Assembly (NCBI GenBank): GCA_000004695.1
Contig: CM000155.2
Location: 1,888,001 to 1,952,000 of the forward strand
Source: Dictyostelium discoideum
Lineage: Eukaryota
Direction of reading: 5' to 3'
Length of the DNA stretch: 64,000 nt
Numbering within the stretch: the first letter of the stretch is position 1; the number at the start of each line of letters is the position of its first letter. The notes beneath the pieces were generated by a model, which saw nothing but the letters and a program-made list of their open reading frames with translations, ran no database searches and had not been told where the DNA came from. Below are positions 3,263-8,378 of the stretch, piece by piece. Position numbers and translations under genes: made by a program.

Positions 3263-4228
3263 TTAATTTGAATTTTTAAAATTTTTATTTAAAAAATCAT
3301 AAACAACAGAGAAATCTTTTTGACCATCACCTTTTGCAACTAAGAGAGTATAGAGTTGATGAGCAGAATTACCAAGTAAGAGTGGTTCACCAATTGATTT
3401 AGCAGAGTCAACAGCGAGACCTAAATCTTTAGTCATGAGGGCAGAACCAAAACCACCAGTGTAACCTCTTGAAGCTGGTGAAGTTTCAATTACACCTGGA
3501 CATGGGTTATATAATTCAGAAGTCCAACAACGTGCTGAAGAGGTGTTGAAAATACCTGCTAATTTCTTTGGATCCATACCTTGTTTAACACCTAAGTTCA
3601 TGGCTTCACTCACTGCAATCATTGAGATACCCAAAACTAAATTATTACAAACCTTGGCGACTTGACCAGTACCAACGTCACCGCAATGTACTATGTTTTT
3701 ACCCATGCATTCCAAGTATGTTTTGGCAGTGTTGAAATCTTGTTCGCTACCACCTACCATGAATGTTAATGTGCCAGCCTCAGCACCGCCAGTGCCACCG
3801 CTAACTGGGCAATCCAACATTGTAGATTGATGTTTCTTGGCAATTGATGCTACTTCACGAGCAGTTGCAGGATCGATTGTTGATGAATCTAATAATAATG
3901 TACCTGGTCTAACAGTTTGAAAAATACCATTCTCACCACAATAAACATTCTTTACATGTGCTGATGCTGGTAACATGGTAACGATAACATCGGCTTCTTT
4001 TGCAACCTCTGCTGGTGAATTGGCAATTTTAGCTCCTTTTTCTTTTAATCTATTCATATTATCTTTTGACATATCAAATACAATTAAATTATGACCTTTC
4101 TTTATTAAATTGATTGCTTGATGTCCACCCATATTACCTAATCCAATAAATCCAACTGTTTTTGAAGATGATGTTGACATATATCTAACATTTTTAAATA
4201 ATAATAAACTCTTTTTTGATGAAAACAT
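3263..4228 (-). CDS. hibA: 3-hydroxyisobutyrate dehydrogenase, mitochondrial (NAD-binding 6-PGDH-like fold)
   Basis: GFIGLGNMGGHQAINLIKKGHNLIVFD Rossmann motif and full-length similarity to HIBADH. The ORF-track start at 4273 is a TTG. The first ATG is at 4228 (aaagaaagaaaaATGTTTTCA), followed by a presequence-like MFSSKKSLLLFKNVRYMSTSSS. Gene symbol is recalled from dictyBase naming and is uncertain. Confidence 0.85.
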   Translation of the reverse strand: MFSSKKSLLLFKNVRYMSTSSSKTVGFIGLGNMGGHQAINLIKKGHNLIVFDMSKDNMNRLKEKGAKIANSPAEVAKEADVIVTMLPASAHVKNVYCGENGIFQTVRPGTLLLDSSTIDPATAREVASIAKKHQSTMLDCPVSGGTGGAEAGTLTFMVGGSEQDFNTAKTYLECMGKNIVHCGDVGTGQVAKVCNNLVLGISMIAVSEAMNLGVKQGMDPKKLAGIFNTSSARCWTSELYNPCPGVIETSPASRGYTGGFGSALMTKDLGLAVDSAKSIGEPLLLGNSAHQLYTLLVAKGDGQKDFSVVYDFLNKNFKNSN

Positions 4229-4824
4229 TTTTCTTTCTTTTTTATAAAATATAATAAAAATATCACAAAACAATTAAAAAAAAAAGATCAAAAAAAAAAA
4301 AAAAAAAAAAAGCGAAAAAAAAAAAAGAACTGTTTTAAAAAAAAAAAAAAAAAAAAAATCTGTTTTAAAAAAAAAATAAAAAAAAAATAAAAAAAAAATT
4401 AATATTTTTTTTTGAAATTTCATCAACATATATTAAATTAATTTTTTTTTTTTTTTATACTCATAATTCTCAATCAAGGTCATTGCATTTTCCACTTTAT
4501 TTACAAGTTTATGATCTAATGGATTTAATAAATAATGAAAAACAAAGTATTGAAAAAAGAGGAGGGTAACCATATGGTTAGAAGGAAGTGGTACTTTTTT
4601 TTTACAATAAACCAACTTTACAATCTTCGAACCATAATAATAGTGGAACAAATAAAACAAATTTAAAAAAAAAGAATTACACATTACAAATATTAATTTT
4701 GATTTATATTACAAGGTTTTTTTTTTTTTTTTTTTTATTAATTAAATAAAAAATTTTTTTTTTTTTTTTTTTTTTTTTTAAATGTATATAAATATATAAA
4801 TAAATAAATATATATAAATAAATA

Positions 4825-4854
<30 letters not shown>

Positions 4855-4862
<8 letters not shown>

Positions 4863-7396
4863 ATCCAACATTTCTATTTCTTCTTGCTCTATTTTTTCTA
4901 TGTTTATGAATTTTAACACAAAGTAAAACTGCACCACCAATTAATAATAAAGGAGCACCAACAGTAAAAGCAGCAGTGTAGAGAGTAATTTTTTTAGCCA
5001 TTTTTAATTTTCTATGTCTTCTACGTGGTGGTGGTGGAGTATAAGTATCAGGAACGAATGGTGAATAATATTGACGATCAAAACATTCGGGATATTCATT
5101 TGAACTATAGTGGCCACTTTGATAGGGGTTCATACATAACCAACAGAATTGATGTTGACAATTGATACAGGTCATATGATTACAACCATCATGTTTCTCG
5201 ATATGAGATTTACAAGTTGGACATGGTTTAACGAAATGTTTATTACTCTCGAGGAAATCAATATAAGCGGTGGCAGCCGATTCTATGGATTTATTCTTTC
5301 TTCCTTGCAACTCCATTGCCTCAGTACCACATTTTGCACCCTCATGAGAATATTCACCACATATCCAACAGAAATCATTTGAACATTTTGGACAATTTAA
5401 TATTGGATTCCTTTCACTACCACCACGAACTGGTGTATCACAATCTGGAGTTGGACACCATTTGATTGGTTCCGTTTTTAATGAGGCAATCATTGAGAAC
5501 TTTTGATACTTTAACCAATTCTTTTCGTTGGTTAACATGTAGATTTCACTCTCTTTGATCTCTTTTTTACATTGTGGATGAGGACATGAGATATCCAATA
5601 CTCTACCCTCGGTAATTAGTATTCTAAGATGCTCTGTGATACAATCGAAACAATAAACATGATCACATTCCAATGTGAAAACTTCATTCGATTGATCATA
5701 TTCCATATAACAAATTTTACATTCAACTGGTTCCTCCAATTTAGTTGATACCTTTTTTCTATCTTCCATCTCTTTCTTTAATTTAATATATTGTCTTAAT
5801 ACTTTTTTCTCAATTCCAAAGCTTTCAACAATAACTTCACCTTCTGATCCAGATGATGATTCAGAATCTGATTCTTCGCCTTCTTCCTCCTCTTCCTCTT
5901 CCTCCTCCTCCTCAGAGTCATCATATTCAAATACTAATTCAGCATCACCATTAACTGGTTTTAAAAAACTTTGTTTTATTCTTGATGGAGTTCTACCGAA
6001 ATTAATAATCTCTTCATGTAATTGTTGTTTTGTAAATGATTTTTGGACTGTTGGTAATGAATATCTATTACATAATCTTTTTGAATGTCCTGAATATCCA
6101 ATAATTATTTCTGTTGTCATTGGTGATGGTGGTCCATTATTTTTTTTTATAGTTTGTTTAATATTTTCAATTTCAGAATCTGATGAATCAGAATCTGATG
6201 ATTCGTCGTCGTCGTTATTATTTACAGATTTTGGTGATGTTGTAGTTGTTGTAGTGGTTGTTGTGGTTGTAGTTGTTGTTGTTGTATTTGGTAAATGTGC
6301 AGATGATAATCTAAGTGATGGTGTAGAAATATGTTTTCTTTGACATTTTCCTAATTCATATGATTCCGCTAATTGATTTTCAGGTTCTGATTCAGATTCT
6401 GAATTAATTCTTGATCTTATTTTTAATGGTATACCATTCTTTGTGAATGACATTGATTTTGTTTTTAATTTTAAATTATTATTATTATTACTATTATTAT
6501 TATTATTACTATTATTATTATTATTATTATTATTTTCTTCTTCTTCGGATGAAATATCAGTTTCTGATTCTTCTTCTGATTCAATTTCAAAACGTTTATT
6601 ATTATTATTGTTATTATTATTGTTGTTGTTTCTATTTACAGTTTTATTAGTTCTACCAGCAGCTGTAGTTGTTGTTGTAGTTGTGGTTGTTGTAGAGGTT
6701 GTTGAGGTTTTATTTACACCATTTACACTATTAAGAAATGTATTAATTGTAAATGGTTCAAAATTATGACTTGGAGTTGGAGTTCTACCATTTATTGGGG
6801 TTGGATTTGCTCTTGGTACATTTGGTAAGTATGAAATTGTTGCAGCTCTTGAACGTCTGGACCCAATTACAATATCATCATCTGAAGAAGATATTGATTC
6901 ATCATCATCCTCTGATGATGTATCAATTGTTCTATTTGCTCCATTTGCATTATTATTATTATTATTATTATTATTTCTATTTCTTCTTGTATTATTATTA
7001 TTTGCTGTTGTTGTTGTTGTTGTTGTTGTTGTTGTAATTTGATTTTTTGATTTCTTTCTTTTTAATAATGAAGAAAGTGAATTTTTAGTTGATAAAATTA
7101 AATTTGGTTTTGACTTTTTTAAGAATTCTCTTGGTTGAATTATATCGTAATCGCTATCGGAGGATGATTCTAAAACATTGGTTGTATTATTATTATTATT
7201 ATTGGTGGTAGGTGGTAATGTGAAATTTAATTCTTCATCCTCTCCACTCATAATCTTTATTGTTGTTAATATATCATCAATACGATCTAATAATCCCAAG
7301 AAATGACTTAACTTTTCTTCATGGGTTATATAATTATCAATTAATACTAGAATTCTAGATCTAGTTTTTTCTAATCTAATTTTATATTGTATTAAT
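4855..7396 (-). CDS. RBR (RING1-IBR-RING2) E3 ubiquitin-protein ligase with C-terminal transmembrane anchor; main coding exon
   Basis: CKICYMEY...CDHVYCFDC (RING1), CPTPDCDTPV...CPKCSNDFCWIC (IBR) and CPTCKSHIEKHDGCNHMTCINCQHQFCWLC (RING2 with catalytic Cys), then a hydrophobic helix AAFTVGAPLLLIGGAVLLCV. The N-terminal half is low-complexity (poly-N/T/E). The ORF-track start at 7299 is TTG, and the frame stays open up to an AG acceptor at 7397/7398. Translation starts either at the ATG at 7251 (MSGEDEE) or in upstream exons (next feature). Confidence 0.8.
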
Positions 7397-7659
7397 CTTT
7401 TTTTTTTTTTTTAAAAAAAAAAATAATAATAATAATAATAAAAAAATAATAAAATTAGTTCATCAAATCTATTAATTTTAAATTAATAATAAATAAAAAA
7501 AAATAAAAAATAAAAAAATAAAAGAAATACCACACACACTCGCTTTCTCTTTTTTTTATCCTCTCTTTAAATTTTTATGGTGGAGTAAAAAAAAAAATAG
7601 AGAGAGAAAAAAAAAAATAATAAAATACAAAATTTAATAGTTTTTTTTTTTTTTTTTAC

Positions 7660-7965
7660 CTACTTGGTATTTTGAGATTTTGATAATTTTTGAGTGCAAT
7701 GAATATCGGGTGCTGATGGTGTGAACATTAATTGGACCAATGAATTTAATTCATCTATATTTTTCTCAACAAATGGTGTAACTTTTGAAACTGTTAAGTC
7801 ATCAACTTGTTGTTCCTAAATATTATTATTATTTGGTGATCATTAATTTTTTATTTTTTTTTATTTTTTTTTTTATTTTTTTTTTTCCTATTTTTATTTT
7901 TTTTTTTTAATTTTTTATTTTATTTTTATGTGTAATATATTTCTTACCAATTCTACACTTGCCAT
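7660..7965 (-). CDS. two short upstream exons (7948..7965 MASVEL|GTAAGA; 7660..7815 EQQVDDLTVSKVTPFVEKNIDELNSLVQLMFTPSAPDIHCTQKLSKSQNTK). Either 5' exons of the RBR ligase or a separate 57-aa protein
   Basis: Textbook Dictyostelium first exon: A-rich leader, ATG, six codons, GTAAGA donor, a 132-nt AT-rich intron ending tttag|, then a 51-codon open exon. That exon ends either at its TAG (7660..7662) or at an overlapping GTAGGT donor (exon end 7664), whose phase matches the acceptor at 7397 of the RBR exon. Not in the ORF track because no ORF there reaches 60 aa. Confidence 0.5.
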
Positions 7966-8378
7966 CCTTTTTTTTTTTTATACTCTAAAATTTATTTTAT
8001 TATTTTTATTTTTTATAATATTGTAGGGGTAAAATAACTGATATGTATATAATAATAAAGTTAATATTTATTTTTTTTTTTTTTTGTCTCTTTTATTTAT
8101 TTTTTTTTTAATTTTATTTTTATTTTTGGTTCTTTTTTTTTTTCAATTGGTTTTTTTTTTTTTTTATGAATACACTACGAAGATGGTTATTGAGTGTGTG
8201 AGTGAGTGAGTGTGTAAGTGTGTTGGTTGGAGAAAAAAAAAAAATAAAAAAAATAAAATTAAATAAAAAAAATAATTCAAAAAATTAAATAAAAAAAATA
8301 AAAATAAAAAAAAGAAACAATAACCAAAAATCTTTTTTTTATCTGATTTCTGTTTTATAAAATCATCATATAATAAAC

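Follow-up and report, generated by a model that had tools for sequence, protein, structure and literature searches.

We analyzed a 64,000-nucleotide stretch of the Dictyostelium discoideum genome (GCA_000004695.1, contig CM000155.2, forward-strand positions 1,888,001 to 1,952,000), hereafter called the window and numbered from its first letter. Our subject is a gene on its minus strand that encodes an RBR (RING1-IBR-RING2) E3 ubiquitin ligase. The catalytic part of this gene lies in an open reading frame (ORF) of 814 residues at 4855..7299, whose first codon is TTG. The original prediction left the 5′ end of the gene between two readings, namely a single gene of three exons, or a separate 57-residue protein next to an RBR ligase that starts at an internal ATG at 7251. 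After comparing the locus with a second D. discoideum assembly, with Dictyostelium purpureum and with distant homologues, we conclude that the RBR gene is almost certainly one three-exon gene (7965-7948, 7815-7664 and 7396-4855) encoding 903 residues. The 57-residue protein, annotated as DDB_G0292706, is, to judge from the sequence, an artefact that arises when the phase-2 donor AA/GTAGGT is read through. The whole explanation, in which the three-exon gene encodes a single polypeptide made up of GAT-like domain, linker, RBR module and membrane anchor, is in our view very probable.

All features of the gene are on the minus strand. Exon 1 (7948..7965) is an 18-nucleotide mini exon, ATGGCAAGTGTAGAATTG, read as ATG GCA AGT GTA GAA TTG (MASVEL) with the donor GTAAGA next to it; 4 codons 5′ of ATG-7965 there is an in-frame stop. 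Intron 1 (7816..7947) has 132 nucleotides and a GC content of 8%, and runs GTAAGA...TTTAG. Exon 2 (7664..7815; 152 nucleotides) encodes residues 7-56 together with 2 nucleotides of the codon for K57, ends in AA/GTAGGT, and carries helix 1 and the beginning of helix 2 of the GAT-like domain. Intron 2 (7397..7663; 267 nucleotides, phase 2) runs GTAGGT...(A)15G, and its acceptor AG at 7398/7397 is the sole AG between an upstream TAA (7413-7411) and the conserved coding sequence. Exon 3 (4855..7396) comprises 2542 nucleotides including the stop codon at 4857-4855. It supplies the remainder of the GAT-like domain and, after this, an extended low-complexity linker, the RING1-IBR-RING2 module and a membrane anchor at the C-terminus. 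Splicing of the three exons yields a coding sequence of 2712 nucleotides for 903 residues and a stop. The TTG-start ORF, the mini exon, the 132-nucleotide intron, the donor and the acceptor had all been described before and could be read directly in the DNA, whereas two details required correction. The frame had been described as open for 48 codons upstream of the TTG; in fact, 48 residues precede ATG-7251, and the frame is open to the TAA at 7413..7411. Exon 2 had been counted as 51 codons and actually consists of 50 codons plus 2 nucleotides. The phase fit that had been called exact does restore the frame, but it is partly trivial, since the lengths of both introns are divisible by 3 in the window and all three exons therefore lie in one absolute frame.

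Reading past the exon 2 donor leads to a TAG at 7662..7660 and so to the annotated 57-residue ORF; this stop exists because the donor's own bases, GTAGGT, form it. The product of exons 1 and 2 with this read-through matches exactly XP_629546.1 / EAL61156.1, the hypothetical protein DDB_G0292706 of D. discoideum AX4, on which literature searches returned nothing relevant. Split gene models that arise from read-through of a phase-2 GTA donor are an ordinary gene-prediction artefact, and the present case does not differ from them, the donor making the stop both in D. discoideum (AAG/TAG) and in D. purpureum (AAG/TAA). Exact look-ups in the protein collection retrieved neither the 903-residue model nor a 798-residue model starting at Met106, four other Met-start variants or the TTG ORF. 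A word-index protein search with the joined N-terminus also returned no match, and it missed the identical 57-residue entry too, the index being lossy for this query. With alignment A1 as the query, it returned two fragments only.

We located the gene in a second D. discoideum assembly, GCA_054883475.1, via the neighbouring 3-hydroxyisobutyrate-dehydrogenase-like gene (window 3266-4228). That assembly contains a called gene with the same ATG, the same stop and a 903-residue product, and when its locus is spliced at the sites proposed here, the resulting protein does not differ from the 903-residue model of the window. Its intron 2 has 266 nucleotides compared with 267 in the window, the 1-nucleotide difference lying inside the intron. 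Consequently, the exons are not co-framed there, and the frame is restored by splicing only. The merged 903-residue model is thus already public in the newer assembly, and this repair of the gene model is not new.

The corresponding D. purpureum locus (GL871424.1, here L001) was reached via the RBR core, which led to DICPUDRAFT_42790, and a tblastn search with the 903-residue model spans the whole locus. Exon 1 in this species again has 18 nucleotides, ATGTCAGCTATAGAAATA (MSAIEI; L001:8130-8147), followed by GTAAGT. Intron 1 is 68 nucleotides long and cannot be aligned with that of D. discoideum, while the flanking exons are conserved. Exon 2 again has 152 nucleotides, with the 3′ end AA/GTAAAA and TAA as the read-through stop. 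Intron 2 has 90 nucleotides (GTAAAA...TTATTTAG) and interrupts the identical codon position, and exon 3 begins A TTA ATT CAA TAT AAA, so that the phase-2 junction (AA/GT...AG/A TTA AT.) is common to both species. In short, the lengths of exons 1 and 2, the phases and the junction codons agree between the species, and the introns are unrelated. Between the two species, exon 2 is 80% identical and ungapped, with 7/3/21 differences at the three codon positions (chi-square p = 1.8e-4), and the first 176 nucleotides of exon 3 are 76% identical and ungapped, with 10/6/26 differences (chi-square p = 3.4e-4). Such a third-position bias is the signature of purifying selection on this frame, including the 49 codons upstream of ATG-7251. 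Because D. purpureum has GTT (Val) at the position of ATG-7251, in the context ...LKIVSGEDGE, the internal start is not conserved. An ortholog gene model in another dictyostelid had been proposed as a check on the three-exon gene, and the D. purpureum locus carries the same 5′ exons and phases.

Two further observations concern the D. purpureum orthologue itself. The annotated protein DICPUDRAFT_42790 (P0002, 'partial', 309 residues) covers the C-terminal third only; the ORF built from the same three 5′ exons begins at L001:8130 (locus L001:8130-11005), and the truncation is not due to the N-run of the scaffold (4982-5104), which lies inside another gene. The orthologue also has an extra 75-nucleotide intron (L001:10647-10721, GTATGT...AAAAG) in RING2, between ...MTCTN-C and QHQYCW. 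It is absent in D. discoideum, and an intron was therefore gained or lost between the two species.

Homologues outside Dictyostelium likewise contain both halves of the N-terminal domain in one chain. An exhaustive profile search over 1.84 billion representatives found 16 proteins at an expectation value (E) <= 1e-3; among them is the 57-residue D. discoideum fragment, whose match is confined to profile positions 1-43. Two homologues, P0007 (558 residues) and P0008 (541 residues), are complete ORFs from Logan assemblies on transcript-like contigs of 1.7-1.8 kb. Over D. discoideum residues 10-104, their N-termini form a single aligned block (E 2e-12 for P0007 and 3e-10 for P0008), with the sole alignment gap inside exon 2 and none at the exon 2/3 junction. 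P0008, P0023, P0024 and P0027 combine the N-terminal domain, the RBR module and a C-terminal hydrophobic segment in one chain, and P0007 likewise has the RBR module and then a C-terminal hydrophobic segment after its N-terminal domain. As a check, a hidden Markov model (HMM) built from 13 non-Dictyostelium sequences only was scanned against 2,861 stop-to-stop six-frame segments from the window and the D. purpureum locus. Its only significant matches in D. discoideum were exon 2, at E 1.7e-6 over profile positions 4-43, and the first part of exon 3, at E 3.8e-6 over profile positions 42-96, and in D. purpureum it picked the same two pieces and nothing else. The two halves abut in the profile precisely at the proposed intron 2. 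The order GAT-like domain, linker, RBR and membrane anchor is thus, at the level of sequence, conserved in a small eukaryotic family. One more sequence, P0019 (GCA_015689235.1, 5760-nucleotide contig; Logan L009:426-734), is a 102-residue call that consists of a GAT-like domain and a non-homologous tail, with short unrelated calls downstream; here, too, a family member has probably been called in truncated or split form.

The RBR catalytic module (5122..5721, minus strand) occupies residues 616-815, from RING1 (CKICY...) to RING2 (...FCWLC), behind a long low-complexity linker rich in Asn, Thr, Ser and acidic residues. On the exon 3 translation, Pfam reported zf-C3HC4 at 26.3 bits (cut-off 21), IBR at 77.6 bits (cut-off 24.3), IBR_1 at 50.4 bits and IBR_2 at 31.4 bits, all above their cut-offs. 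Together with phmmer, which gave ARIH1 as the closest solved RBR (E 1.3e-26 over query residues 9-224), these matches establish the RING1-IBR-RING2 arrangement of RBR E3 ubiquitin ligases. Residues 793-800, DGCNHMTC, fall within the IBR_1/IBR_2 match and resemble the Ariadne GCNHM motif; by comparison with Ariadne-type RBRs, the Cys of GCNHM is a putative RBR active-site cysteine. A single C-terminal transmembrane segment, ITLYTAAFTVGAPLLLIGGAVLLCV (4915..4989, minus strand; residues 860-884), is predicted by the Kyte-Doolittle scale. The only 19-residue windows above 1.6 start at 862-869, with a peak of 2.28, and a mostly basic tail of 19 residues follows the segment. The hydrophobic segment is kept in all full-length homologues.

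The N-terminal domain is coded by 7255..7797 on the minus strand, is interrupted by intron 2 and comprises residues ~13-104 of 903. It is probably a GAT-like three-helix bundle of the GGA/TOM1 type, in place of the RWD domain that had been suggested. When family profile A4 was searched against the PDB sequences with hmmsearch, the top five matches were all GGA1 GAT domains (E 1.2e-3 to 3.7e-3; profile positions 14-95), which points to a marginal but specific homology to the solved GAT domains. Pfam GAT (PF03127) matched 6 of the 15 family members, with a best E of 9.2e-5, and was the only family matched by more than one member; P0027 matched over residues 18-91 against profile positions 2-73 of 77 (19 bits), and P0022 scored 20.2 bits. 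The structure of the P0007 domain was modelled with AlphaFold from a 15-row alignment in which the two D. discoideum exon pieces were separate rows. The model has three helices (17-34, 42-68 and 73-103), a mean pLDDT (predicted local distance difference test) of 70.5 and no beta-sheet. A Foldseek search with it ranked GGA1/GGA3 GAT first, and these domains made up 6 of the 8 top entries, including a ubiquitin complex. The modelled domain agrees with the antiparallel three-helix bundle of ~90 residues seen in GAT domains. Mapped on D. discoideum, helix 1 falls in exon 2, helix 2 (~52-78) runs across the exon 2/3 junction, and helix 3 ends at ~113. As annotated in two pieces, the bundle is thus severed within helix 2, and a start at Met106, just short of the end of helix 3, would delete the bundle.

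Intron 2 is three times as long as its D. purpureum counterpart (267 compared to 90 nucleotides) and contains an island with G and C (7528..7612, minus strand) that reads CTCTCTCT...ACTCCACC...AGAGAGG...GAGAAAGCGAGTGTGTGTGG. The island combines a CTCTCTCT/AGAGAG inverted repeat with a GTGTGTGTGG run inside an otherwise AT-rich intron. An unusual CA/CT-rich block had been noted in this intron; the block is present, occurs in one copy in the window and is without counterpart in the 90-nucleotide D. purpureum intron. Its predicted fold is not significant (z-score -1.45), and against Rfam it gave only a sub-threshold mir-320 match (23 bits, cut-off 55). A bacterial-type promoter and terminator scan of the island was uninformative, as expected for a eukaryote. 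A purine-rich stretch of 25 nucleotides that the island shares with the upstream region in D. purpureum was judged to be a low-complexity chance match. Elsewhere in the intron, a box C/D small nucleolar RNA starting from a TGATGA at ~7464 was considered and dropped, since no CTGA D box was seen downstream of it in the sequence. The island may act as a regulatory element within the intron, or as an internal promoter from which a Met106 isoform would be made. On the minus strand, intron 2 also has A-runs after the GTAGGT donor (7660-7640) and before the AG (7410-7397), of which D. purpureum keeps the 5′ one and has a T-rich 3′ end.

Upstream of the gene, a CA-rich block, CCAACCAACACACTTACACACTCACTCACTCACACACTCAAT (CACACTCAC...), lies at 8180..8235 on the minus strand, 220-270 nucleotides before ATG-7965, and a similar CACACTCACACAAACACACAC block precedes the D. 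purpureum ATG at L001:7740-7765. These blocks are candidates for a conserved promoter element, which would fit a promoter upstream of exon 1. The neighbourhood of the gene differs in arrangement between the species. In D. discoideum (window 3263-4273 region), the order is the RBR gene, a hibA-like dehydrogenase gene in the same orientation and an MIT-domain gene in the opposite orientation. In D. purpureum (L001/L006), the MIT-domain gene comes first, the dehydrogenase gene follows in the opposite orientation, and the RBR gene comes last in the orientation of the MIT-domain gene, so that the dehydrogenase-MIT pair stands on the other side of the RBR gene.

The observations that weigh against our explanation concern both the gene structure and the nature of the N-terminal domain. 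As for the structure, the AX4 record treats the 57-residue product as a protein of its own, a poly-A run precedes the intron 2 acceptor where D. purpureum has a T-rich tract, and intron 2 carries the G/C island. The rival arrangement consists of two genes, namely DDB_G0292706 (7965-7948 and 7815-7660) and an RBR ligase translated from ATG-7251 under a promoter within 7397-7663. The existence of XP_629546.1, the in-frame ATG at 7249..7251 (Met106) and an island of a kind found upstream of Dictyostelium genes all agree with such an arrangement. However, D. purpureum has Val at the supposed start, the 49 codons before it are conserved with the third-position bias of coding sequence, and the interval that would hold the promoter is in D. 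purpureum a plain 90-nucleotide intron with no room for one. Moreover, homologues carry both halves in one chain, the profile splits exactly at the intron, the 57-residue peptide would keep of the three-helix bundle one helix and a stub, the cut falling in helix 2, and the newer assembly calls the 903-residue product. We therefore consider two genes very unlikely, and the single gene spliced from the GTAGGT donor at 7663 to the AG acceptor at 7397, which the original prediction had offered as one of its readings, is strongly supported by the D. purpureum exons, the homologues, the non-Dictyostelium HMM and the second assembly. A less drastic possibility is that the three-exon messenger RNA is the main product and is accompanied by a second isoform. 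Such an isoform could arise by retention of intron 2, which would give the 57-residue peptide or a target of nonsense-mediated decay, or from an internal promoter at the island, which would give a Met106 ligase without the GAT-like domain. The threefold length of intron 2 with its unique island, the position of Met106 directly after the domain and the unusual poly-A context of the acceptor speak for it. Against it, both Met106 and the island are missing in D. purpureum, and the island has no significant structure or RNA-family match. On balance, we regard a second isoform of this kind as improbable.

With regard to the domain, every Pfam GAT score stayed below the 31-bit gathering cut-off, and the D. 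discoideum N-terminus alone had no Pfam match, neither among the four N-termini searched at E <= 10 nor in the first 176 residues at E <= 1. Because the D. discoideum sequence itself has no Pfam match, its assignment is transitive through its relatives, and because the scores of those relatives are sub-threshold, we speak of a GAT-like domain and do not count it among the Pfam GAT members. An hhalign comparison of a 4-sequence alignment with one GGA1 sequence gave an E of 0.0019 but a probability of 14%, and the structure was modelled on the homologue P0007, not on the D. discoideum sequence. In addition, the ubiquitin-binding residues of GGA3 site 1 (L227, M231, E246, L247 and E250) are without clear family counterparts in the HMMER register, which is uncertain at ~15% identity; the same holds for acidic counterparts of E246 and E250. 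The domain might accordingly be a generic three-helix bundle, for instance syntaxin-Habc-like or spectrin-like, and unrelated to GAT. We consider this unlikely, and it would leave the gene structure unchanged. An RWD-like N-terminus, as in RBR ligases of the RNF14/ARA54 type, had been proposed from a resemblance seen by eye (E-x-x-L...FTPSAP), and we give it hardly any credence. No Pfam RWD match was found at E <= 10 for the N-termini of D. discoideum, D. purpureum, P0007 and P0008, the model of the domain consists of helices only, and no RWD/UBC-like entry appeared among the top fold-search results, in which the matches went to GAT. The FTPSAP-DIHCTQ stretch itself is a Dictyostelium-specific loop insertion that the other members lack.

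Our preferred explanation, a tail-anchored RBR ligase with an N-terminal GAT-like domain, describes a variant of known RBR ligases, and its gene-model part is ordinary. RNF144A/B, RNF19A/B and RNF217 share with the present protein a RING1-IBR-RING2 module followed by a single C-terminal hydrophobic anchor. To our knowledge, none of them has a GAT-like N-terminal domain. Among solved structures, the RBR core is nearer to ARIH1/ARIH2 (E 1e-26) than to RNF144A, which is present in the PDB as a RING1 fragment only (E 5.7e-7); this is a comparison of sequence matches, not an assignment of orthology by phylogeny. The GCNHM of the protein resembles the active-site motif of ARIH1/ARIH2, the closest solved RBR cores. 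In contrast to these, the protein lacks the Ariadne autoinhibitory domain and a UBA-like or acidic N-terminal region, and has the membrane anchor and the GAT-like domain instead. With RNF14/ARA54 it has in common an accessory domain N-terminal to the RBR module; in the present protein, this domain is helical throughout and GAT-like, whereas theirs is an alpha/beta RWD. Ten RBR genes have been described in Dictyostelium, with orthologues of the RNF144 and ARA54 subgroups among them, and the present gene is not named there (PMC5666861). Known GAT domains, such as those of GGA1, GGA3 and TOM1, follow a VHS domain in soluble trafficking adaptors, whereas here the domain forms the very N-terminal part of an RBR ligase with a membrane anchor. 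Compared with GGA GAT, it scores below the Pfam cut-off and has no N-terminal Arf-binding hook. We know of no human RBR that carries a GAT-like domain, and no description of a combination of GAT and RBR was found in the literature searched.

Overall, we suggest a putative role for this protein. It would be a tail-anchored RBR ubiquitin ligase facing the cytosol, whose N-terminal GAT-like domain may serve as a ubiquitin- or partner-binding module, as the GAT domains of GGA and TOM1 do. GAT domains bind ubiquitin and Tollip (PMC7721868, PMC7952518), and in GGA3 the site on helices A and B, site 1, uses L227, M231, E246, L247 and E250 (PMC7721868). Because these residues are not clearly conserved in the HMMER register, we put ubiquitin binding by the N-terminal bundle forward only tentatively; by analogy with GGA and TOM1 it is possible, and our own judgment leans slightly the other way. 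The domain may steer the ligase to membrane proteins or partners that are already ubiquitinated. Alternatively, it may hold the RBR module in check or otherwise regulate it, in analogy to the accessory domains that regulate other RBR ligases (PMC7458406). In its broadest form, which we consider rather doubtful, our proposal is that dictyostelids and other eukaryotes represented by transcript-like contigs share an RBR subfamily not previously described, in which a long disordered linker would connect a ubiquitin-binding GAT-like bundle with an RBR module that is tail-anchored. Such a ligase might extend or edit ubiquitin on membrane cargo or on itself, or its N-terminal domain might gate the RBR module allosterically.

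For the reference annotation, the result is a correction: DDB_G0292706 (XP_629546.1) would lose its status as a gene and become exons 1 and 2 of the adjacent RBR ligase gene. Knockout, tagging or expression constructs designed from Met106 would drop the only recognisable non-catalytic domain of the ligase. A TOM1-based ancestral ESCRT-0 is said to operate in Dictyostelium. If the broader proposal is true, the protein would represent an ESCRT-0-like 'reader' of ubiquitin fused to a 'writer'. Accessory domains define RBR ligases functionally, and a reader domain on a tail-anchored writer would be testable in Dictyostelium.

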